From the NCBI GenBank assembly GCA_005877815.1, contig VBOG01000078.1, positions 13,291-77,290 on the forward strand: DNA of 64,000 bases, given 5' to 3'. Both the position numbers and the translations under genes were made by a program. Source of the stretch: Nitrospirota bacterium. Lineage in GTDB: Bacteria; Nitrospirota; Nitrospiria; Nitrospirales; NS-4. Below the pieces are notes generated by a model that was given only the letters and a program-made list of their open reading frames with translations, did not search any database and was not told the DNA's origin. Positions 648 through 10,477 of this stretch are shown piece by piece (position 1 is the stretch's first letter; the number at the start of each line of letters is the position of its first letter).

Positions 648-1145
648 CTAGGCCGAGCCTTCGGTCTCCACGCGTGCCAGAAGCGTTGGCACTTCCAAGA
701 CACCACCGAGCCGATCTTCGATGCGGAGCACCGCTGTCACGAAGGGATGCGCCACGTTCGATCCATTCTGAGGAGCCGGCAAAAATTGGTCCGGCTGGAC
801 AGTCATGATTTCCGGCGACTGATCCACCAATACGCCGACCTGATGTTCGCCGTGCCGAATGACTACTGCGAATGCCGAAGGGGCGGTGCTCGACAGATCG
901 AGGATCGTGCGAAGGTCAACGAGAGGAATGATCACGCCGCGAAGATTGGTCACGCCTGCTAGGACAGTCCCCATCCCGGGGACGGGCGTGACCGCCTCGA
1001 CAGCAAACACTTCTCGAACGTTCCGAAGGTCAATGGCATACAGACCACCGGCGATGCTGATCAGACAGACACGTGAAGGGACTTCCGCCCGGACCGGCGC
1101 ACCAGCGGGTTCAACCACCGAGACAGGGTTGGGAGTGGGTTCCAT
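648..1145 (-). CDS. CheW-like coupling protein (PilI-like position)
   Basis: 165 aa. CheW-domain pattern ...ISIAGGLYAIDLRNVREVF...VTNLRGVIIPLVDLRTIL... Sits between the receiver and the MCP. Confidence 0.85.
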   Translation of the reverse strand: MEPTPNPVSVVEPAGAPVRAEVPSRVCLISIAGGLYAIDLRNVREVFAVEAVTPVPGMGTVLAGVTNLRGVIIPLVDLRTILDLSSTAPSAFAVVIRHGEHQVGVLVDQSPEIMTVQPDQFLPAPQNGSNVAHPFVTAVLRIEDRLGGVLEVPTLLARVETEGSA

Positions 1146-1164: not shown

Positions 1165-1530
1165 TCAGTTCACCAGTGCCTTTTTGACGGCAGCGAGTAA
1201 TTCCTCCGACTTGAACGGTTTGACAACATACGAGTTGGCACCTTGCTGCTGCCCCCAGAACTTATCGCTCTCTTGACCCTTTGAGGTGCACAACATCACC
1301 GGAATGTTCTTAAAGCGCTCGTCATTCTTTAGGTCGCGGCAGGTCTGGAATCCATTTCTTCCCGGCATGACGACGTCCAGTATGATAAGGTCAGGACGGT
1401 CATTGACCAGTTTTTCCTCCAACTTGTCTGAACTCAGGTAGGTTACGACTTGGTAATTGGCCGACTTCAGGTAACCCTCGATGAGCTGCAACTCAGCGTA
1501 CACATCGTCCACGACAACAACCTTGCTCAT
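1165..1530 (-). CDS. stand-alone response-regulator receiver, PilG/PilH type
   Basis: Receiver motifs VVVVDD ... DLIILDVVMPGRNGFQTCRDL ... KFWGQQQGANSYVVKPF resemble PilG/PilH-type CheY proteins. The ORF track starts at GTG 1563. ATG 1530 follows AGGAGGTGAAGGAG and is preferred. Confidence 0.8.
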   Translation of the reverse strand: MSKVVVVDDVYAELQLIEGYLKSANYQVVTYLSSDKLEEKLVNDRPDLIILDVVMPGRNGFQTCRDLKNDERFKNIPVMLCTSKGQESDKFWGQQQGANSYVVKPFKSEELLAAVKKALVN

Positions 1531-1620
1531 GTCTCCTTCACCTCCTGAATCAGTTGATTTCACGTAACGTTGTCACCTTAGAGACTGTTTCGTTCCCCAT
1601 TAGGGCTATACAAGGTCCAC

Positions 1621-2251: not shown

Positions 2252-2617
2252 ATGGAATTTATCGGAACCGTCGAGTTTTCGGAGAACGGCAAGCGCGGGA
2301 ATCCCGTGGCTCTGTACGTGCAGCAACAGGACGGTGAGTATCGCATCAGTTCTCGCTTGCCTCAATGGACGCATATCGTTGGAACGGGAGCGACCGTCAA
2401 TAAGGCTGCCGGCGACTATGAATTGAGGTTAAAGGCGGCGGCATCCACGGCAGTGTATGACGGGCCGGCTTGGAATGCCGGCATTAAAGCGGAGAAACCG
2501 GCCTCTCCCAAGCCGCCTGCAGCCGCAGCCCCTATGAAAACTGCCTCTGAAGGTTCCCCACCCGCGCCGCCCCCTCAAGAGACGCCACCCTCTTCTCAGA
2601 CTCCGTCGTCCAGTTGA
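2252..2617 (+). CDS. hypothetical protein with Pro/Ala/Ser-rich C-terminal tail
   Basis: 121-aa ORF starting 12 nt after the previous stop. Low-complexity tail ...KPASPKPPAAAAP...PPAPPPQETPPSSQTPSSS. No family recognised. Confidence 0.45.
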   Translation: MEFIGTVEFSENGKRGNPVALYVQQQDGEYRISSRLPQWTHIVGTGATVNKAAGDYELRLKAAASTAVYDGPAWNAGIKAEKPASPKPPAAAAPMKTASEGSPPAPPPQETPPSSQTPSSS

Positions 2618-2627
2618 GCCGTCTGGC

Positions 2628-3185
2628 ATGACTTGTCCTCGTTGCGCTCAGAAGAATGAGAAAACCGCCGCGTATTGCAGCGCCTGCGGCCAGCAGATCA
2701 GCTTTACCCCTGTCGCATCCCCGGTGGTGGATTGGTCTCTCTGGCGACGCTTTGTGGGTCCTCGTGCCGACTATTACTTGAAACGGTTCGAGACATTTCA
2801 GAAAGGCACATCCGACCGGTTTCGCCCGACCTGGAATTGGCCGGCGTTCGGCGTCGGCTGGCTCTGGTATCTCTATCGAAAGATGTATCTTCACGCTGCC
2901 GTGTTCCTTTTTGGAGGCTTGCTTCCAATGGTGCTCGGTGCGGGCTTGGCAGGCGTCGTGATTTGGAACGTGTTTGCCGCCGTCAGCGCGAATTTTCTCT
3001 ATTACATGCACGTCAAGCTCTCGTTGGCGAACATCGAACGTCGAGCCGGGACGGACACGTCAATCCGCGATCAGCTCATCTCCGATCTGGGCGGCATTCA
3101 ACCGTATGTCTGGTGGTTGGCAATGATTCTCATGGTAATCGCGATCGTCCTCGGAATTTTGGAGGCGCCTCCTTCCACCCAATAA
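2628..3185 (+). CDS. zinc-ribbon plus DUF2628-like membrane protein
   Basis: N-terminal CPRC...CSAC zinc ribbon. Then RPTWNWPAFGVGWLWYLYRKMY and further hydrophobic helices, which is typical of DUF2628. Confidence 0.6.
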   Translation: MTCPRCAQKNEKTAAYCSACGQQISFTPVASPVVDWSLWRRFVGPRADYYLKRFETFQKGTSDRFRPTWNWPAFGVGWLWYLYRKMYLHAAVFLFGGLLPMVLGAGLAGVVIWNVFAAVSANFLYYMHVKLSLANIERRAGTDTSIRDQLISDLGGIQPYVWWLAMILMVIAIVLGILEAPPSTQ

Positions 3186-3250
3186 GGGTCCTGTCATGAA
3201 GAGCCCTGCCTGATTCGTCAACGTATTGTCTATGTTACAATATCCTGTCC

Positions 3251-5110
3251 ATGCCGCCGTCGATTCATCCCGTTCAGCTCATTTCGGTTCTGCGCTTGAA
3301 ATCGCTGACGCCGGCCATCATCTTTCTGACCAGCCGACGCTCATGCGATGAGGCTTTGCAAAGCTTCGGCCAGGGCGGCGTGAGCATTTCGCCTGCCCGC
3401 CGTGAAGGAATCACGGCCGTCCTCGAAGAACTGACGGTCGAGTATCCAAGCATTCAGGATCATCCGCTGCGGGAAATCGTCACAACCTATGGGGTGGCCG
3501 CGCATCATGCGGGACATCTCCCGTCATGGAAGATTGCGGTGGAGGAACTCATGCGGCGCGGGTGTCTCGACGCGGTGTTCGCGACCACGACATTGGCGGC
3601 GGGCGTCGACTTTCCGGCGAGGACGGTCGTCCTGACACAGTCCGGCGTAAGGCGGGACCAAGACTTCACGGACTTGAGCGTCGCGGAAGTCGGACAGATC
3701 GCAGGGCGCGCCGGCCGACGCGGCAAGGACAGCGTCGGATTTGCCATTGTCACACCATCACCGTATATGGACCTCGGCGTCCTCGTGCGGGGGCTGACCG
3801 GGCGACCCGAACCGCTGGACAGCCAGTTTGTGATTTCGTATCCCATGGTCCTGAACCTTCTCAAGGCACATCCTGTCGATCACATCCAATCCATTCTGGC
3901 CAAGAGCTTCGCGCAGTATCAGCTCAATGAACAGGCGGAACGCCTCGAGTCACGTCATGAAAAGATCCACGATAAGTTGGTCTCCTATGCTCCGCGTGAG
4001 TGTTCCGACTGGCTGACACAGTGGAACGCCTACGATCACGCGACACGCCAAGCCGCGCAGAAATTACACGCCCGACGACATGTGCCGCCTGAAGTCTCCG
4101 AACGTCTGCCCTACCTCACGCCGGGGCGCCTCGTGACGTTTCCGCGATTTCGAGGGGTGGTGCTGCGATCTTATCGCAGCCGCGGACAGCACCGTGACAT
4201 GGTGACCGTGCTGCGAAACGGAGGCACGGTGGCCGAATCCGCGGTGGCTGATATCACGTCTGTCGGCAGCCGCTGCTTCGACTTCACACCGGCCCCTGCG
4301 TTCCCTTGGGCGAACCAGGAAACGCTGGCGTGGCTGAATCAGCAATTGGAGAGCTTGCCGAAACAGTCCCCCGCGATGGTGATGTCACCCGTGATTCCTG
4401 AGGAGAGCGGCGACGACCTGGTCAAAAGTCTGGGCGACCTGTTTCCCTGCCCGACGTGCCGGTGTCGCCCCACCTGCGCAAAGGAATTCAATGCGGCGAA
4501 CAAGCTGAAGCAGGAGGCGTTGCACAACGCGAGATCGGTGCAGTCCCTACGGACCGGCCTGTGGCACAAATTCCAAGAGCGCGCCGACACGCTTCATGAG
4601 CTGGGGTATCTGGATGCCGGATATAAATTGACATCAGATGGCGATTGGGCACGGCTGATTAGGATTGATTATTCCCTGTTGATTACGGAACTCATTCGCG
4701 CTCACGCGTTCAACGGGGTCAGTCCCCCAGTGCTCGCCGGACTGATGGCGTCTATTTCTTACGACAATGATCGCCCGTCATCATTCCCCCGCATCACAGC
4801 TGCGCTGGCCGCGCTCGTCACGGTCGCGCGAAGGATGGCTGACGCGCTGGCCGTCCATGACGATCCGCCCCTGCTGCGCGCCGATGTCGGCGGGCTGGCG
4901 GAGCAGTGGGTCGGCGATCCCACTATCACGTGGCCGCAATTATGTCGTGGCACGTCCGCCGCCGAAGGGGATGTCTATCGTATCCTTTCGCGGACCCTGG
5001 AGTATCTCTCGCAAATCCATTCGCTGCATGCCACGCACGCTGAACTCGGCGCGGTCGCGGCGCAAGCCATGGACCGGATACGGCGAGGCGTGTTGGAGGA
5101 ACTGCCGTGA
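3251..5110 (+). CDS. Ski2/HelY-like helicase, C-terminal half only (RecA2 + helical/ratchet + DSHCT-like region)
   Basis: Begins at the RecA2 strand (AIIFLTSRRSCDE). Has AAHHAGHLP, ATTTLAAGVDFPARTVV and GQIAGRAGRRG (helicase motifs IV-VI), plus a DSHCT-like tail (...EGDVYRILSRTLEYLSQI...). No Walker A or DExx motif is present. Confidence 0.8.
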   Translation: MPPSIHPVQLISVLRLKSLTPAIIFLTSRRSCDEALQSFGQGGVSISPARREGITAVLEELTVEYPSIQDHPLREIVTTYGVAAHHAGHLPSWKIAVEELMRRGCLDAVFATTTLAAGVDFPARTVVLTQSGVRRDQDFTDLSVAEVGQIAGRAGRRGKDSVGFAIVTPSPYMDLGVLVRGLTGRPEPLDSQFVISYPMVLNLLKAHPVDHIQSILAKSFAQYQLNEQAERLESRHEKIHDKLVSYAPRECSDWLTQWNAYDHATRQAAQKLHARRHVPPEVSERLPYLTPGRLVTFPRFRGVVLRSYRSRGQHRDMVTVLRNGGTVAESAVADITSVGSRCFDFTPAPAFPWANQETLAWLNQQLESLPKQSPAMVMSPVIPEESGDDLVKSLGDLFPCPTCRCRPTCAKEFNAANKLKQEALHNARSVQSLRTGLWHKFQERADTLHELGYLDAGYKLTSDGDWARLIRIDYSLLITELIRAHAFNGVSPPVLAGLMASISYDNDRPSSFPRITAALAALVTVARRMADALAVHDDPPLLRADVGGLAEQWVGDPTITWPQLCRGTSAAEGDVYRILSRTLEYLSQIHSLHATHAELGAVAAQAMDRIRRGVLEELP

Positions 5111-6123
5111 CGCGCAACGACCTCGAACGCGCGCTTGCGGAACTTCCTTTCCGGCTGTTGCGGCGGTTGGCGCGCAGCACTGTGGGTCCGCATATCCTTC
5201 GGAGCGGGAAACGCCGGATGATTCACGCGATCCTTGCCGTGTCGGAAACCAACCCTGAACGGATCGACGCGGCGATCAGGACTGCACGTGCAGAACAACA
5301 GGCGATTGAGGCGGTCCCCGCGATCGTTCCAGATGCTGACGCCGCGCAGAAGAATAAACCGGTGGACCTCGGCACCTTCCTGGAAGGCCTCGGGGTCCCG
5401 GAGCCCAAACCATTCGTGCCGGATCCCTGGCAGTTGGAAGCGCTCGACGCGCTCTTGCAGGGCGACGTCATCGTGAGTGTGCCCACGGGAAGTGGCAAAA
5501 CCTATGTCGCCGTCGAGGCCACGCGACGTGCCATGATGGAGGACCGGACAGTCGTCTACACCTCTCCGCTCAAGGCACTCTCGAACACCAAATTCACCGA
5601 GTTCAAGAAGATCTTCGGCCCAGAATCCGTGGGCATTTTAACGGGAGACCGCCGGGATAACCCTCAGGCCCCCATTCTGATCATGACGACGGAGATCCTC
5701 CGCAACCTCCTGTATGATGCGGCCGGCGGGGAAATTGACCTGCGCCTGGATACCCTCGGCCTGGTGATCCTGGATGAGAGCCAGTTCCTGGCGGACCCAG
5801 AGCGCGGTGTCGTTTGGGAAGAGACGATCATCTTCTGCCCGTCCCAGGCACGGTTGCTTCTGCTGTCCGCATCCATCGGCAATCCTCAGGAACTCGCTGC
5901 CTGGCTGACCAGCATTCGACCCTATCCTTGCCATCTCGTTCGCCATCAACATCGCTCGGTTCCGCTCCGCGCAGGATATCTGCATCCAAGCGGCAAGCTC
6001 ACCCCGTTATTCCGGACTGTCTCCATGCCGCCGTCACCATCCCAGGCTGTCCTCCATCCCGAGGCCAAACGCCTCTTCACCCAATATGAAGAGGACACTC
6101 TCCACACAAGGCGGTCCGGATGA
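5107..6123 (+). CDS. Ski2/HelY-like helicase, N-terminal half only (RecA1 / DEAD-like domain)
   Basis: WQLEALDAL, VPTGSGKT (motif I), TSPLKALSNTKF, LDESQ (motif II), LLSAS (motif III). The GTG start overlaps the upstream stop (GTGA at 5107..5110). Confidence 0.8.
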   Translation: MTRNDLERALAELPFRLLRRLARSTVGPHILRSGKRRMIHAILAVSETNPERIDAAIRTARAEQQAIEAVPAIVPDADAAQKNKPVDLGTFLEGLGVPEPKPFVPDPWQLEALDALLQGDVIVSVPTGSGKTYVAVEATRRAMMEDRTVVYTSPLKALSNTKFTEFKKIFGPESVGILTGDRRDNPQAPILIMTTEILRNLLYDAAGGEIDLRLDTLGLVILDESQFLADPERGVVWEETIIFCPSQARLLLLSASIGNPQELAAWLTSIRPYPCHLVRHQHRSVPLRAGYLHPSGKLTPLFRTVSMPPSPSQAVLHPEAKRLFTQYEEDTLHTRRSG

Positions 6124-7223
6124 CACGACAGCAACTATTTGCACTGTGTTTTTTCGGGGTGCTGCTGGTGCTGCTGTACCAGATCGTGGTGATCTTCAGC
6201 CCTTTCCTTGTCCCAATCTTGTGGGCGGCGATTCTCGTGAGATTGTCATATCCCTTGCATGCTCGACTGACTGTCTTTGTGCGGGGACGCGACACGATTT
6301 CGGCGACGGCCCTCACGGCCGCCGTCATACTGCTGGCGGTCTTGCCGGTTGTGTATATGGGGGTTCTTCTCGTTCAGGAGAGCGTGAGCGCCTACGAAAG
6401 CGCGACAACCTGGATACAGTCCGGCGGGATGAAGCGACTGCCGGAATATCTTTCAAGACTTCCGCGGGGCGGCGCACTACAAGAATTGATGGGGCGTGCG
6501 GTGGTGACCAACGTTCATCTCGAAGAGGCGTTCTTGCAAGGCACCAAAACCTTGAGCGTCTACCTCTTATCCCAGGTCGGCGATTTGGCGAAGAACGCCT
6601 TCAATCTCGTCATGTCTTTTCTCGTGATGATTTTTACGTTGTTTTTCTTCTTCAAAGACGGGCACCGCCTGTACGAAACATTCTACCGGTTGATCCCGCT
6701 GGAGGAGACGCACAAGCATCAGATTGTCACCAGACTCGATATGACATTGACCGCCGTCATGCGAGGGATCGTCGTCACCGCGATCGCGCAAGGTCTCTTG
6801 GCGGGCACCGCCTACTGGTTTTTGGACGTGCCATTTCCGATCATCCTCACGTGCCTCACCGCGCTGCTGTCGTTGCTGCCCTTTGGGGGCACGGCTCTGG
6901 TATGGGTGCCCGTCGCGATCTATCTGTTCACGGTGGGGCCACTATGGGCAGGTATCGTGATGCTGGTATGGGGCGTGGTAGTGGTCACCATGGCCGACAA
7001 TTTCCTCAAGCCCTTGTTAATCGGCAAGGGGGCGGGGATCCCGACTCTCTTTCTATTTTTTGGGATCCTGGGAGGCCTCGCAGCCTATGGGTTCATCGGC
7101 CTGTTTCTCGGCCCGATCCTCATTGCGATCCTGTTCACCGCCGTCCAGATTTACCGCGAGGAATACCAGGACGAGCAGGCGCCCTTTAAGGCCAAGAGTG
7201 AGGACCCTCCTCAGCGTTCCTGA
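6120..7223 (+). CDS. AI-2E family (PerM/UPF0118) transporter
   Basis: 367 aa, multi-TM. C-terminal signature ...LPFGGTALVWVPVAIYLF...ADNFLKPLLIGKGAGIP...GFIGLFLGPILIAI. The start overlaps the helicase stop (ATGA at 6120..6123). Confidence 0.85.
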   Translation: MTRQQLFALCFFGVLLVLLYQIVVIFSPFLVPILWAAILVRLSYPLHARLTVFVRGRDTISATALTAAVILLAVLPVVYMGVLLVQESVSAYESATTWIQSGGMKRLPEYLSRLPRGGALQELMGRAVVTNVHLEEAFLQGTKTLSVYLLSQVGDLAKNAFNLVMSFLVMIFTLFFFFKDGHRLYETFYRLIPLEETHKHQIVTRLDMTLTAVMRGIVVTAIAQGLLAGTAYWFLDVPFPIILTCLTALLSLLPFGGTALVWVPVAIYLFTVGPLWAGIVMLVWGVVVVTMADNFLKPLLIGKGAGIPTLFLFFGILGGLAAYGFIGLFLGPILIAILFTAVQIYREEYQDEQAPFKAKSEDPPQRS

Positions 7224-7254
7224 TTCGCATCTGTCTGCCGGCATGAGAGAAAGA

Positions 7255-8352
7255 TTATGGGCCGGGAAGCGTTTGAGGGCACGCAACTGGAATTGCATCA
7301 TCGTGCGGATCTGCATAGATTTGATCGGCCAAGGTTTTTGCGAGTCCTGCCGTGATCTCCTGCTGAAGCATGCGCACCGCGCGTTCGGACGCTTCACGGT
7401 AACTCAGGTGTCCCTCACGCCCCGATCTCGTCGTCCCTCCGATGACCTGCCGTGTGCCGGGGTTGACGACCATGAAATCCGCGCACCAACGGACGTAACG
7501 GAATTGAGGGTCCGGCAGGTTCAAGGGCCAAATGTGGGTTTCGCCTTTCACCAGTAAATCGGCATTCGCCGGTACGCGCGTTGTGGGAGTCACATTTTCG
7601 GCCGTCATCGGAAAGCCTTCGCGGGTCAGACCTTCGAGAATGGCGCGTGTCACCGCCTCCACGTGATCGCCGCGTACCTCGAGAGAAATCCGAAGCCGCT
7701 CACGGAGGAAACGTTCGAGATCAGCATTCAGCCCTGACACCGAATAGGAGCTCTCCATGCCCTGCCCGCCAATGATCCGCAGATCGTTATTGATGGCCGT
7801 CCGTACGGATAGCGCTCTCGCTGCGCGCCGCAGTCCGCGGAGCGCCAGAAGTTTGTCCTCGCTACGCGACGACGCCAGATCACGCTCGATGGCCTCGTCC
7901 AGTTCGACAATTCGGCCCTGCAGCGCTTTTCGTGCCGTGCCGCGATGCATGACGGCCAGCGCCGAATAGAGTCCTGTCTTTGGATGCTGCCAGGTTTCGG
8001 CCACCGTGACATTTTCAAGGACTTTGTCTGTGGACACCTTGGTGGTCGTATCCAACATCAGCCGCCGTTCCGTCTGCGGGCTGCCCCTCCCTTCCCGGCT
8101 CGTATAGGACTCGATATCCTGCGTTTGACTGGTCACATCGGCCTTGAAGACCCGTGAGATCGCCGCATAGGCACGCTCTTCAGCAGCCGGCTTCGCGTCA
8201 GCCTGTCCGACGCCAATGATAAACTGATCGGCGGGATACGCGGCGGCCCGATTCTCGGTGACCCAATCGGGAGCCTTCACTCCCGCGCAGGCGGCAAGGA
8301 CGCATGCAAGGATCACAGTCATACACGCCCGCTGGACGGTATCCGCACTCAT
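7255..8352 (-). CDS. LPP20-domain lipoprotein with extra C-terminal domain
   Basis: Lipobox VLAACAG. N-terminal region ...AAEERAYAAISRVFKADV... resembles the LPP20 family. Overlaps the upstream gene by 4 nt. Confidence 0.55.
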   Translation of the reverse strand: MSADTVQRACMTVILACVLAACAGVKAPDWVTENRAAAYPADQFIIGVGQADAKPAAEERAYAAISRVFKADVTSQTQDIESYTSREGRGSPQTERRLMLDTTTKVSTDKVLENVTVAETWQHPKTGLYSALAVMHRGTARKALQGRIVELDEAIERDLASSRSEDKLLALRGLRRAARALSVRTAINNDLRIIGGQGMESSYSVSGLNADLERFLRERLRISLEVRGDHVEAVTRAILEGLTREGFPMTAENVTPTTRVPANADLLVKGETHIWPLNLPDPQFRYVRWCADFMVVNPGTRQVIGGTTRSGREGHLSYREASERAVRMLQQEITAGLAKTLADQIYADPHDDAIPVACPQTLPGP

Positions 8353-9818
8353 TCCATGACCCGCGTCGTGATGAACCGCTTCTGGCCCTCTTGCACGGTC
8401 ACCCCCCGCACTACCTGCTTCTCCAGGACGCCAAAGCCTCCGGTGTAGCGCAATTCGACCTCATAGGTCCCCGGAGGCACCCACAAGCGGCCAAGTTCAA
8501 TGCGGTCGGGAAGCGTCCCCCAGCTTCGTTTGTCCGCTTCCTCCGACGCGATCGCCACCATGTGGGCAAGCGCGCCGGCAATGGCCCCTGCCAACTCCCC
8601 CCCCTCCTTCTTCCCCACGGCGCTGCGGATCCCGCGGCGAACCCCTTCCGCCGCCGCATACTTCCATGCGGCGCGAGCCACGGCTTTCACCGTTGTCCGG
8701 ACGACGCGTTCGTCCAGATCTTTCACCGCGATGGCCGTGATGTCCTCCATGGTCGCCAATCTGGCTTCATAATACGAGTTCCCGCCGCCGGCAACTGCTT
8801 CGGCACCGGCAACCGCGGTGCGTCGTGGCACAAACTTCGGCACCGCCAACCTGATCACGTGGCCCGTCAGTCCGTACAGAACGCTTTCGGCGGCGCGGGA
8901 ATCTGCACCGGAACTCCGGCGCGTCCCGACTTTCGTCGCCAGCACGACGGCCAGCGCCTCAGGACTAAATGGAACGTCGATGAAGAGGTCCCGCTTTAGC
9001 GGCGCGCGTCCGGCATAGGTCACGAAGACAAGTTCGGCCATTCCACGTGTGCCGGCCTGCGGCTGCCAGATGACTCCGGGAAACATCCGCCTATAGCTTT
9101 CGTACTCGTCCAAGAGTCCCAGTGCTTCCGTGATTCGTAAAAGGTCCTTCCGGAGCAGGTCCGGAACCTCCGTTCCATATAGCTTCCGACTCTGCTCGAA
9201 AGCCTCAAAGGAAAGCCGGTAGGCGACAAGCGCCTCAGACAGATTACCGGTGGCTTCATAGAGCACGCCGCTGAGATAGCGGGCGAAGGGATCTTTGGTG
9301 TAGGTCATCGCGCCGTGATTGCGATCACCCATCACGGTCAACTTATGGTCTACTTTCCGCGCTTCGACCAACGCCTCATCCCACAGGCCGAGCTGGACAT
9401 AATTCATCGCCATGAACACGTTCAGCATCACCTTCTCGAAATCCTCACCCTCGTAGGGGAGCGCGTTATCGGTCGTCAAAAAAGCGGCGGCTTCCGCGCT
9501 GATACGCCGGGTGTACAGAGCTTCCGAAAGTTCTTCGGCCTTGGAGAGCGAGACGTTGCTTTCCTGGTACCGGCCCGCGAGATGTTGCAGCATGCCCTTG
9601 TCCATTAAATACAGGACGGTGCTGCGGCTACCGTACGTGCCTTCCTGCTCTTCCAGGATCGCGAGCCCTTCACCGGGGCGTCCGGCCTGAAGAGCATGAT
9701 CCACCTGCGCATAATGGTTGCCGCTCAGGCCGCAGCCGTCGAGACTCGTGAGAGAGATGAAGATGAAAAGAAAGAGCGTCAGCCGCAGACGGCCAAGAAT
9801 GGCTGAACGCGTGAACAC
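8349..9818 (-). CDS. TPR-like lipoprotein (COG3014-like)
   Basis: Signal peptide and lipobox (SLDGC). Helical-repeat N-terminal half (...YLMDKGMLQHLAGRYQESN...YVQLGLWDEALVEARK...YLSGVLYEATGNLSEALVAY). The family call is from memory. Confidence 0.55.
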   Translation of the reverse strand: MFTRSAILGRLRLTLFLFIFISLTSLDGCGLSGNHYAQVDHALQAGRPGEGLAILEEQEGTYGSRSTVLYLMDKGMLQHLAGRYQESNVSLSKAEELSEALYTRRISAEAAAFLTTDNALPYEGEDFEKVMLNVFMAMNYVQLGLWDEALVEARKVDHKLTVMGDRNHGAMTYTKDPFARYLSGVLYEATGNLSEALVAYRLSFEAFEQSRKLYGTEVPDLLRKDLLRITEALGLLDEYESYRRMFPGVIWQPQAGTRGMAELVFVTYAGRAPLKRDLFIDVPFSPEALAVVLATKVGTRRSSGADSRAAESVLYGLTGHVIRLAVPKFVPRRTAVAGAEAVAGGGNSYYEARLATMEDITAIAVKDLDERVVRTTVKAVARAAWKYAAAEGVRRGIRSAVGKKEGGELAGAIAGALAHMVAIASEEADKRSWGTLPDRIELGRLWVPPGTYEVELRYTGGFGVLEKQVVRGVTVQEGQKRFITTRVME

Positions 9819-9832
9819 AGCGCCGATGGCGT

Positions 9833-10477
9833 CTAGAAGATAACGCGCTTACGTTCGATGACTTTCTTGATTTTCTTCTGGCCGAACCACGTCTTGACGT
9901 TGTTGGAGAGGTCGACCATTTCAAGATCCACCTGGTAGAACATGGCCTTCGTCCCCTCGGCCTCGTCGAGGATCGTACTGATGGACCCACGCAGCAGGTA
10001 ATCCGCGCCCAACTCTTTTCCGGGTGCTTTTTGAGTGGCTTCCAGTGCGTGCGTCGCCTGATCGCGGCGCTCTGCGCGAATCTCCTCGCGCTCCCCTTTG
10101 CCGGCAATGAAGGTCACGCGCTGTGAATTGGTCAATTCTCGCTCGAGATCGCTGATGAAGGTCTGGACGCTGATGTGCTCGTGGCTACGATTCACGACGG
10201 TGCCGACGACGACGACTGGCCGTCCGCCTGTTGCCTTCGTCGACGCATCCAGCCAGGGGCGCGCCAGGGCGTCCTTCACCATCTCTTCCGCTACCAACCG
10301 GGAATCGGTATCGTTCCACCGCCCGCTCAGATCCGTGACCGAAGCCGCATCCACCCGCGAGACCGTAGTCGAGGCGCATCCTGTCGCCAGCAACAGGGCC
10401 GAGAGCACGCATCCGATAACAAGGTATGGAGTCTTACTGTGCGCCACGTTTGTCCTCTTCCTGTTGCAACCGTTCAA
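9833..10477 (-). CDS. LpoB-like (COG3417) lipoprotein
   Basis: Lipobox LLATGCAS. ...GRWNDTDSRLVAEEMVKDAL...VVVVGTVVNRSHEHI...FISDLERELTNS... resembles the LpoB fold family. The track start overlaps the upstream gene by 44 nt, so the true start may be an internal GTG. Confidence 0.6.
   Translation of the reverse strand: MNGCNRKRTNVAHSKTPYLVIGCVLSALLLATGCASTTVSRVDAASVTDLSGRWNDTDSRLVAEEMVKDALARPWLDASTKATGGRPVVVVGTVVNRSHEHISVQTFISDLERELTNSQRVTFIAGKGEREEIRAERRDQATHALEATQKAPGKELGADYLLRGSISTILDEAEGTKAMFYQVDLEMVDLSNNVKTWFGQKKIKKVIERKRVIF

Follow-up and report, generated by a model that had tools for sequence, protein, structure and literature searches.

The locus described here raises the question of how a helicase can be encoded by two genes that stand in the reverse order of its domains, and whether their products are one enzyme at all. 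It lies in a stretch of 64,000 nucleotides (nt) of contig VBOG01000078.1, from a Nitrospirota bacterium of the Nitrospirales lineage NS-4, and this whole stretch is called the window below. An earlier inspection of the letters without database searches (the sequence-only reading) had noted two open reading frames (ORFs), joined by a GTGA overlap and followed by an ATGA overlap with the next gene, and had proposed that the C-half precedes the N-half of one Ski2-like helicase. The ORF list and the sequence confirmed the first point, and Pfam matches, motifs and alignments the second. ORF1 and ORF2 are complementary halves of one Mtr4/Ski2/HelY-type helicase, and both are intact and under purifying selection. 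We consider it likely that they are two subunits of a single Ski2-like helicase, which arose by fission at a loop and subsequent reordering of the genes to C-then-N.

3251..5110, + strand: ORF1, the C-subunit, 619 amino acids (aa), start codon ATG (ORF list); RecA2 minus its first beta-hairpin, winged-helix, arch-like insertion and DSHCT helical bundle
5107..6123, + strand: ORF2, the N-subunit, 338 aa, start codon GTG (ORF list); helical N-extension, RecA1, linker, first beta-hairpin of RecA2 and tail helix
5107..5110, + strand: GTGA start/stop overlap of ORF1 and ORF2 (sequence)

The two ORFs are read in different frames with the C-part encoded first, and no second copy of either helicase half was found elsewhere in the window.

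Two complementary halves of one helicase

Pfam placed Helicase_C (aa 79-158) and DSHCT (aa 459-615) on ORF1, and DEAD (aa 107-261, E 3.6e-22) on ORF2, where ResIII and DEXQc_Suv3 also matched (aa about 105-261). The motif scan gave the same division, which the sequence-only reading had already described: motifs IV to VI are on ORF1, the RecA1 motifs are on ORF2, and no Walker A or DExx motif was found in ORF1. Among 120 representative homologues per half, motifs I, Ia, Ic, II, III and V were invariant, and motifs IVa and VI nearly so.

5413-5433, + strand: RecA1 motif Q, FVPDPWQ (sequence)
5482-5502, + strand: RecA1 motif I, PTGSGKT, present in 120/120 homologues
5560-5586, + strand: RecA1 motif Ia, TSPLKALSN, present in 120/120
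5686-5706, + strand: RecA1 motif Ic, TTEILRN, present in 120/120
5770-5787, + strand: RecA1 motif II, LDESQF (ORF2 aa 222-227), DESQ in 120/120
5863-5877, + strand: RecA1 motif III, LSASI, present in 120/120
3311-3337, + strand: RecA2 motif IV, PAIIFLTSR, on ORF1 (sequence)
3491-3514, + strand: RecA2 motif IVa, GVAAHHAG, on ORF1, present in 118/120
3578-3610, + strand: RecA2 motif V, FATTTLAAGVD, on ORF1, present in 120/120
3695-3724, + strand: RecA2 motif VI, QIAGRAGRRG, on ORF1, present in 111/120
4127..4276, + strand: five-strand beta unit between long helices, an arch/KOW- or SH3-like insertion (ORF1 aa 293-342, fusion residues 631-680; predicted secondary structure from the AlphaFold2 model below)
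4448..4477, + strand: cysteine cluster CPTCRCRPTC (ORF1 aa 400-409; sequence)
4625..5095, + strand: DSHCT domain (ORF1 aa 459-615), Pfam PF08148, E 9.7e-23

The best sequence matches of both halves in the PDB belonged to the Mtr4/Ski2/FRH group (E 2e-30 for ORF1, to Mtr4/SKI2W; E 3e-41 for ORF2, to Mtr4). On yeast Mtr4, ORF2 aa 101-295 matched residues 146-333 and ORF1 aa 10-296 matched residues 397-681, and on the NCBIfam Hel308-type profile NF002654 the halves fell in the same order (ORF2 aa 107-291 on positions 26-209, ORF1 aa 22-203 on positions 246-429). The identity of a Hel308 or archaeal Ski2-type protein was nevertheless rejected, as the NCBIfam equivalog scores were 55-73 bits against cut-offs of 887-1216, the query-normalised template-modelling (TM) scores in Foldseek were 0.46-0.50 for Hel308 against 0.6+ for Mtr4, and Hel308 has neither the arch nor the DSHCT domain. 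Two features expected of a Ski2-like helicase were not found here. Motif II is DESQ and not DExH in all 120 Nitrospirales N-halves, while DEAH stands in nine single-gene relatives and DEVH in the only N-half inspected from Acidobacteriota (locus L087). Also, the helicase core is not on a single polypeptide; it is carried by two ORFs, and this was kept in 76 loci. The H-to-Q change in motif II coincides with the swapped-order clade, and Suv3-type helicases are likewise DExQ.

In an exhaustive profile-free search over 1.84 billion representatives, the closest full-length relatives outside the Nitrospirales cluster were encoded by single genes, with a length of about 900 aa and 31-36% identity; for example, ORF1 9-612 aligned to residues 280-897 of a 903-aa relative (P0249). 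We then have to ask whether the halves add up to such a protein. The concatenated halves from the window, two Nitrospiraceae and one Acidobacteriota locus were aligned with six single-gene relatives of 903-923 aa. Joined N-then-C, the halves were collinear with these, and nothing was missing or duplicated. This alignment, which the sequence-only reading had proposed as a check, fixed the break in a loop just inside RecA2. The length of ORF1 agrees with the C-part of the single-gene relatives. Pfam MTR4-like_stalk and SH3_HelY gave no match on ORF1 even at E<=5, and the stalk was weakly matched on an Acidobacteriota C-half. The pattern CxxCx5C recurs at the aligned position in Nitrospirales, Acidobacteriota and the ~900-aa single-gene relatives, which suggests that the cysteine cluster is a conserved metal-binding or structural knuckle of this bacterial helicase family.

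The fold was modelled with AlphaFold2 (AF2) as a single-chain fusion of ORF2 and ORF1, using a 91-row alignment of fused relatives and separate halves. The mean predicted local distance difference test score (pLDDT) was 90.2 and the predicted TM score (pTM) was 0.83; the only dip was at the artificial junction, where residues 331-340 averaged 68. A single-sequence AF2 run of the same fusion was uninformative (pLDDT 36.7). The top Foldseek matches of the fusion model were full-length Mtr4, FRH and Ski2 (E 1e-50 to 1e-42, 900-970 aligned columns), with a target-normalised TM of 0.80-0.81 for arch-less Mtr4, and Hel308 and Pol-theta helicase ranked well below. The match took in the whole model, including the winged-helix and helical-bundle (DSHCT/ratchet) domains. 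It suggested that the halves are compatible with one Mtr4-like fold; a forced fusion modelled with full-length homologues speaks for compatibility, not for binding.

Conservation of the arrangement and the position of the break

A split gene pair in a metagenome contig has to be checked for artefact or decay, that is, a mis-assembly, a frameshifted single gene or a pair of pseudogenes. Split helicase calls in metagenomes are often frameshift artefacts, and one of the loci collected in this study (L136) looks like such a case. However, a reversed order cannot come from any frameshift. The identical 619-aa protein was found on eight contigs. Five of these were inspected; they differ in sample and pipeline, with three from ENA, one from Logan and one from JGI. 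The 619-aa gene is in all five assemblies, and all that were long enough also carried the 338-aa gene with the same 4-nt overlap, followed by the AI-2E transporter gene. The assembly problem at the junctions that the sequence-only reading had allowed for was therefore not found, as these independent assemblies have the same junctions.

The scan of relatives covered one genome per species and gave 168 relatives. The best 80 of the 168 were all Nitrospirales, Nitrospiraceae or Nitrospira, and ORF1 was matched over 1-619 in them (one over 1-618 and one, at a contig end, over 2-619); named matches include N. defluvii, N. lenta and Ca. N. nitrosa. With three others added to the best 80, 83 loci could be inspected. 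The C-half was followed by an adjacent N-half on the same strand in 76 of the 83; these are all the loci whose contig goes on for more than ~450 nt downstream, and the remaining 7 stop at a contig edge. The gene order in related genomes, another check that the sequence-only reading had proposed, was thus C-then-N in 76/76 informative Nitrospirales loci. Among these loci is that of the complete 4.46-Mb genome of Ca. Nitrospira bockiana, with a GlgC-like NTP_transferase gene upstream and no AI-2E gene downstream. In three unsaturated genome pairs, the ratio of nonsynonymous to synonymous substitution rates (dN/dS) was 0.076-0.11 for the C-half and 0.043-0.107 for the N-half. With dN/dS of 0.04-0.11 and conserved catalytic motifs, the earlier impression that neither half is degraded held good. 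Five assemblies alike, a complete genome, 76 species-level loci, strong constraint and invariant motifs refute the artefact explanation, to which we give practically no chance.

Next to the question of reality stands that of where exactly the protein is cut. The sequence-only reading had let ORF1 start exactly at RecA2 and ORF2 end in the inter-domain linker. The alignments and the AF2 model corrected this, since the break is ~50 residues inside RecA2. It follows the RSVPL linker, a beta-hairpin and a short helix, and immediately precedes the helix in front of motif IV (LxPAIxFxxSR); ORF2 runs 51 residues beyond RSVPL. The hairpin after RPVPL belongs to RecA2 in the mapping on Hel308 and Mtr4, and therefore ORF2 carries the first RecA2 strands and the RecA2 of ORF1 is incomplete alone.

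5953-5967, + strand: RSVPL linker (ORF2 aa 283-287), from alignment to single-gene relatives and Mtr4
5968-6012, + strand: first beta-hairpin of RecA2, RAGYLHPSGKLTPLF (ORF2 aa 288-302), from alignment to single-gene relatives and Mtr4; AF2 predicts strands at 287-292 and 298-300
6055-6102, + strand: tail helix, HPEAKRLFTQYEEDTL (ORF2 about aa 317-334); AF2 predicts a helix at 318-334
3251..3274, + strand: new N-terminus of ORF1 created by the split, MPPSIHPV, exactly so in 107/120 homologues
5107..5406, + strand: N-terminal extension of ORF2, ~100 aa (aa 1-100), missing from single-gene relatives and shorter in other split lineages

In the AF2 fusion, the two strands and the tail helix of ORF2 have pLDDT > 90. 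The single-gene proteins have a gap-rich, basic and variable loop at the position of the break, and in Mtr4 the corresponding loop (about residues 334-396, ~60 residues) was matched by neither half in the searches. Within 117 Nitrospirales homologues, the conservation of the MPPSIHPV head was 0.98 against 0.79-0.80 for the whole protein, and in ORF2 it was 0.93 for RSVPL plus hairpin and 0.77 for the tail helix. The new termini are conserved as strongly as the catalytic core or more, and the region that matches them varies among the six aligned single-gene relatives. The N-extension before FVPD (the Q-motif) has a median of 113 aa in Nitrospirales versus ~48 aa in the Acidobacteriota N-half of L087. 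AF2 predicted helices in it (pLDDT about 80-90 over aa 1-60), its conservation was 0.60 with the first ~45 residues moderately conserved, and no Pfam match to it was found. It may serve as an extra docking contact. A split intein or trans-splicing was rejected for these termini: there is no Pfam intein domain, and they align residue for residue with the single-gene loop without extra sequence.

Outside Nitrospirales the family is found in several forms. The best non-Nitrospirales match to ORF1 (P0245; 554 aa, 39% identity, E 1e-87) also begins at the break, and it belongs to an Acidobacteriota family (Blastocatellia, Chloracidobacterium) of C-halves of 542-562 aa that are conserved down to 46% identity. 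Four Acidobacteriota lineages have a canonical N-then-C split, in which a DEAD gene of 256-287 aa comes first and the C-half either overlaps it or starts ~25 nt after it. A lone C-half occurs in Chloracidobacterium (L085/L086, 5001-6629) and in a Blastocatellia metagenome-assembled genome (MAG; L089, 5001-6644), with no N-half within ~5 kb on either strand. A third lineage (L090, 3191-5458; L091, 2157-4424) has a canonical split of 256 aa, a 39-nt gap and 485 aa, on three contigs from different samples; dus and an ABC ATPase gene are found upstream of it. These split forms break in the same loop as the Nitrospirales pair, within 7 alignment columns. Further proteins, among them P0257 (621 aa), P0307 and P0261, begin in the same loop, and P0257 groups with a 977-aa fused protein; P0349 (L084) and P0261 (L092) were left out of the classification, their contigs being too short.

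In a metagenome scan with the Acidobacteriota N-half, 73 loci could be classified. Of these, 67 carry the fused gene and 6 a canonical-order split; a swapped pair did not occur among them, nor did an N-half-alone locus with long flanks. One of the 6, the L136 mentioned above, is probably a frameshift: on its 2235-nt contig the N-part and the C-part are in different overlapping frames, most likely by an error in a fused gene, so that splits seen on a single contig need independent confirmation. Fused relatives of only ~700-740 aa, counted stop-to-stop, were also seen (L094, 5755-7968; L095, 5764-7971; L096, 1833-3929), and they are 36-40% identical to both split clades. The length differences in the family presumably lie in the arch region. 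Taken together, the fused form is the norm, at least three lineages show the fission at this loop, and a swapped order was met with only in Nitrospirales. Because canonical-order and unlinked splits at the same loop exist elsewhere, the fission is independent of the swap.

Expression, assembly and origin of the pair

The expression signals were compared in a close clade, consisting of the window and 15 species-level genomes with 75-80% protein identity.

3233..3241, + strand: extended -10-like box TGTTACAAT, candidate promoter; TACAAT at 3236-3241 preceded by TGT, 9 nt before the ATG of ORF1
5095..5099, + strand: GGAGG, a Shine-Dalgarno-like element 7 nt before the GTG of ORF2, within the last codons of ORF1 (LEELP; sequence)
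6120-6123, + strand: ATGA overlap of ORF2 and the AI-2E transporter gene (sequence)
6120..7223, + strand: AI-2E family transporter gene, 367 aa, Pfam PF01594 (AI-2E_transport), E 6e-51; a neighbour outside the helicase

The TACAAT hexamer 9 nt before the ATG and the absence of a purine-rich Shine-Dalgarno motif in front of ORF1, both pointed out from the letters earlier, are as described. The hexamer was kept in 16/16 close-clade genomes at 9-15 nt before the ATG (TACAAT in 15, TAAAAT in 1, with TGn before it in 15), and the surrounding sequence has otherwise diverged. The proposal of a near-leaderless transcript gained support from this conservation; on the other hand, a strict two-hexamer sigma-70 scan of 2400-7600 found no promoter, and terminator-like matches in the same range were not above shuffle expectation. 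The footprint is a reasonable one for an extended -10 promoter, and ORF1 is probably transcribed from it with a very short or absent leader.

The GGAGG before ORF2 was kept in 15/16 close-clade genomes, and the same stretch encodes the nearly invariant C-terminus RGVLEELP; the constraint on it may be dual, for ribosome binding and for the protein. ORF1 and ORF2 overlap by 4 nt (GTGA or ATGA) in 15/15 close-clade loci, and the Nitrospiraceae mostly have a spacer of up to ~140 nt between the helicase genes. In 15/15 close-clade loci the AI-2E gene comes next, starting where ORF2 ends or no more than 3 nt from there, and it is not at this position in Nitrospiraceae. The translational coupling of all three genes suggested earlier is therefore upheld for the helicase pair in the clade of the window, while coupling to the AI-2E gene is a property of this clade only. 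In two Nitrospiraceae loci (L001, 4788-6026 / 6001-7857; L002 likewise), the C-half gene shares its first 26 nt with the end of a GlgC-like NTP_transferase gene upstream, and nearby on the opposite strand there is a glycogen-synthase-like gene. The Nitrospiraceae pair is probably in a transcription unit other than that of the window's clade.

We propose the following mechanism. From the N-subunit, ORF2, would come RecA1 with its ATP-binding motifs and, beginning at the RSVPL linker, the stretch that holds the first beta-hairpin of RecA2 and a short helix; the C-subunit, ORF1, would contribute the rest of RecA2 (motifs IV, IVa, V and VI, including the arginine-finger motif), the winged-helix, the arch-like insertion and the DSHCT bundle. 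The ATPase site would then form only across the subunit interface. The subunits would be held together by the hairpin and tail of ORF2 inserted into the incomplete RecA2 of ORF1, a ring-like packing of the winged-helix and DSHCT domains on RecA1, as in Mtr4 and Hel308, would add to the assembly, and the Nitrospirales-specific N-extension may give a further contact. In the close clade, the 4-nt overlap and the internal GGAGG would favour joint production of the subunits, and the pair is probably transcribed from the conserved extended -10 promoter into a near-leaderless mRNA. Judging from its family, the enzyme would be a 3'-to-5' RNA helicase in RNA processing or decay, or associated with the ribosome. 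As for its origin, a single gene of ~900 aa would have been split in the long, variable, basic surface loop inside RecA2, and the C-then-N reordering would have taken place in the Nitrospirales ancestor.

A stronger proposal is that the split is a design. The helicase would then be an obligate heterodimer motor whose activity is controlled by assembly, with the new termini and the N-extension as a docking module; the C-then-N order with coupling would have been selected so that the RecA2 subunit is made first and then completed by the last-emerging hairpin and tail from the neighbouring ribosome, and the recurrence of the break in three or more lineages would mark a general evolvable split site of Ski2-like helicases. 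We regard this as rather improbable.

The genomic neighbours gave no functional clue and are not conserved between clades. Upstream of the pair, a gene at 2628-3185 (+) encodes a zinc ribbon and a DUF2628-like, probably membrane, region, with all Pfam scores under the curated cut-offs; its end is 65 nt away from ORF1, and inside that gap is the conserved -10-like box. A role as an anti-phage defence helicase (Hachiman HamB, BREX BrxH, Dpd, Cas3) was rejected, as the PADLOC matches covered only ~80-190 residues of the generic RecA core, and the neighbours are the zinc-ribbon/DUF2628 and AI-2E transporter genes here and GlgC-like and ABC transporter genes in Nitrospiraceae. Further away on the minus strand, a CheW-like gene (648..1145) and a response-regulator gene (1165..1563), with a methyl-accepting chemotaxis protein (MCP) gene alongside in the longer contig L173, form a chemotaxis cluster unrelated to the helicase. 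Three consecutive genes at 7255-10477 (-; 365, 489 and 214 aa), with overlapping or near-abutting ends, encode products that look lipoprotein- or periplasmic-type, the first with a weak LPP20 Pfam match on the identical contig; they may be an envelope or curli-like assembly module.

Several points weigh against two subunits that arose by fission and reordering. Domain content, conservation, gene order and structural compatibility are shown here, and physical association, activity, substrate and transcript structure are what we infer. The AF2 model was a forced single chain. Motif II is DESQ, not DExH. The candidate promoter is a conserved sequence box, and the strict sigma-70 scan was empty. 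The C-halves without an N-half within ~5 kb could mean that a half works alone or with another partner. Finally, neighbour-joining (NJ) trees of the C-part and of the whole proteins gave both Nitrospirales and Acidobacteriota as clades in 200/200 bootstraps; Nitrospirales plus Acidobacteriota were monophyletic in only 19/200 and 25/200, and fused proteins interleave without support. The trees would fit one ancient fission, several independent fissions or transfer alike.

The lone C-halves of Chloracidobacterium and the Blastocatellia MAG, together with the clade-specific N-extension of ORF2, could also be taken to mean that the two products are not one enzyme, the C-half being, for example, an RNA-binding or adaptor protein and the N-half a stand-alone ATPase or the partner of another protein. 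We consider this very unlikely, as the halves stay linked and in the same order in each of the informative Nitrospirales loci even where the flanks differ, all ATPase motifs are kept on both sides, among them motif VI of the C-half, which is useful only opposite a Walker A/B domain, and the RecA2 strand missing from ORF1 is carried by ORF2 at a conservation of 0.93. No isolated RecA-like lobe of a superfamily 2 (SF2) helicase is known to be active by itself, which speaks against separate roles as well. If the two are one helicase, the swap could still have another history. The sequence-only reading had favoured a tandem duplication of the intact gene, followed by loss of the 5' half from the first copy and of the 3' half from the second, as the simplest origin. 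Split and swap would then come from one process that needs few steps to give the observed order, and the stop codon between the halves would be the one with which the first copy originally ended; the C-terminus of ORF1 aligns with that of the single-gene relatives, ORF2 starts ahead of RecA1 as a natural N-terminus would, and the phylogeny leaves room for an independent Nitrospirales origin. However, no relic of a lost half was found beside the genes in 84 loci, even at E<=1, the flanking genes abut or overlap, and two deletions would have had to end in the same short loop. Moreover, the same loop was split without a swap in at least two other lineages, and in some genomes the halves are unlinked, so simple fission is viable and recurrent. 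A variant, in which a split N-C pair was duplicated and the outer whole genes were lost, fits equally well and needs no partial deletions. Duplication of the intact gene thus has no positive evidence, and we hold it to be unlikely. A circularly permuted protein made by duplication and truncation was rejected too, since each product is a chain of its own that runs collinear with the matching part of the single-gene protein, and no relics were found in the 84 loci.

Because canonical-order and unlinked split forms exist, the more economical reading looks like fission in the permissive loop, then reordering of two already separate genes in the Nitrospirales ancestor. The reordering could, for instance, have come about if the split pair was duplicated and the outer genes were then lost.

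Comparison with known systems

In the textbook view, an SF2 motor is a single chain whose two RecA lobes close on ATP and nucleic acid. In an entire order of bacteria, to which the nitrite-oxidising and comammox Nitrospira belong, the motor appears to be built from two polypeptides, as it does in at least two further lineages. New here is a conserved Ski2-like helicase, probably of two natural subunits, that is split inside RecA2 and whose genes are in reversed order in one clade. Given the canonical-order and unlinked forms, the swap is less remarkable, and the recurrent, conserved split of an SF2 motor deserves attention. No new biochemical principle is revealed; yet a cut inside RecA2 makes this a natural experiment in strand-complemented ATPase assembly, and the permissive site could be used for engineered split helicases. 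The same enzyme in fused, canonical split, swapped split and unlinked form is a clean case for the study of gene order versus complex assembly. The finding also corrects annotation: the genes now carry labels such as 'hypothetical', 'helicase-related' or 'Helicase (C-terminal)', and one could take them for fragments. In agreement with the sequence-only reading, which was not aware of such an arrangement among Ski2-like helicases, our searches of the open-access literature turned up no account of HelY/Ski2-like helicases being split or permuted, nor one of the canonical-order and unlinked split forms.

Once the halves are put N-then-C, the domain order is that of Mtr4, Ski2 and FRH: RecA1, RecA2, winged-helix, arch-like insertion and DSHCT bundle. 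The Nitrospirales helicase differs from them in being bacterial and on two polypeptides with reversed genes, in having DESQ instead of DExH and a ~100-aa N-extension, in lacking exosome partners, and in its ~24% identity. Bacterial HelY-type helicases, such as those of mycobacteria and Streptomyces, are single-gene proteins of ~900 aa. The nearest single-gene relatives of the pair are also of ~900 aa and align with it end to end at 32-34% identity, and JGI labels several split halves 'ATP-dependent RNA helicase HelY'. The Nitrospirales form is unlike HelY in being split and swapped, and Pfam SH3_HelY and stalk are not significant on ORF1; the likeness to characterised HelY is claimed here at the level of the family. 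HelY of M. smegmatis is reportedly an RNA-stimulated 3'-5' helicase. Streptomyces HelY is associated with the ribosome and is a member of the WblC antibiotic-stress regulon (PMC7157823).

The split forms of Acidobacteriota and of the third lineage (L090/L091) belong to the same family and break in the same loop, with N-halves of 256-287 aa and C-halves of 485-562 aa. They differ from the Nitrospirales pair by the N-then-C order with a 25-39 nt gap or an overlap, or by a lone C-half, and by a shorter N-extension and arch region; motif II of the L087 N-half is DEVH, versus DESQ in Nitrospirales. YprA, described in a preprint, is a different kind of split, in which the helicase is separated from a C-terminal domain array. 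The split reverse gyrases of Nanoarchaeum equitans and Methanopyrus kandleri consist of two natural subunits that reassemble into an active heterodimer (PMC4117796). Like the pair described here, they contain an SF2 helicase-like module and are naturally in two subunits. They are cut between the helicase and topoisomerase modules or inside the topoisomerase, however, so that their motor is uncut and the ATP site is not shared, whereas the Nitrospirales helicase is divided inside RecA2 itself.

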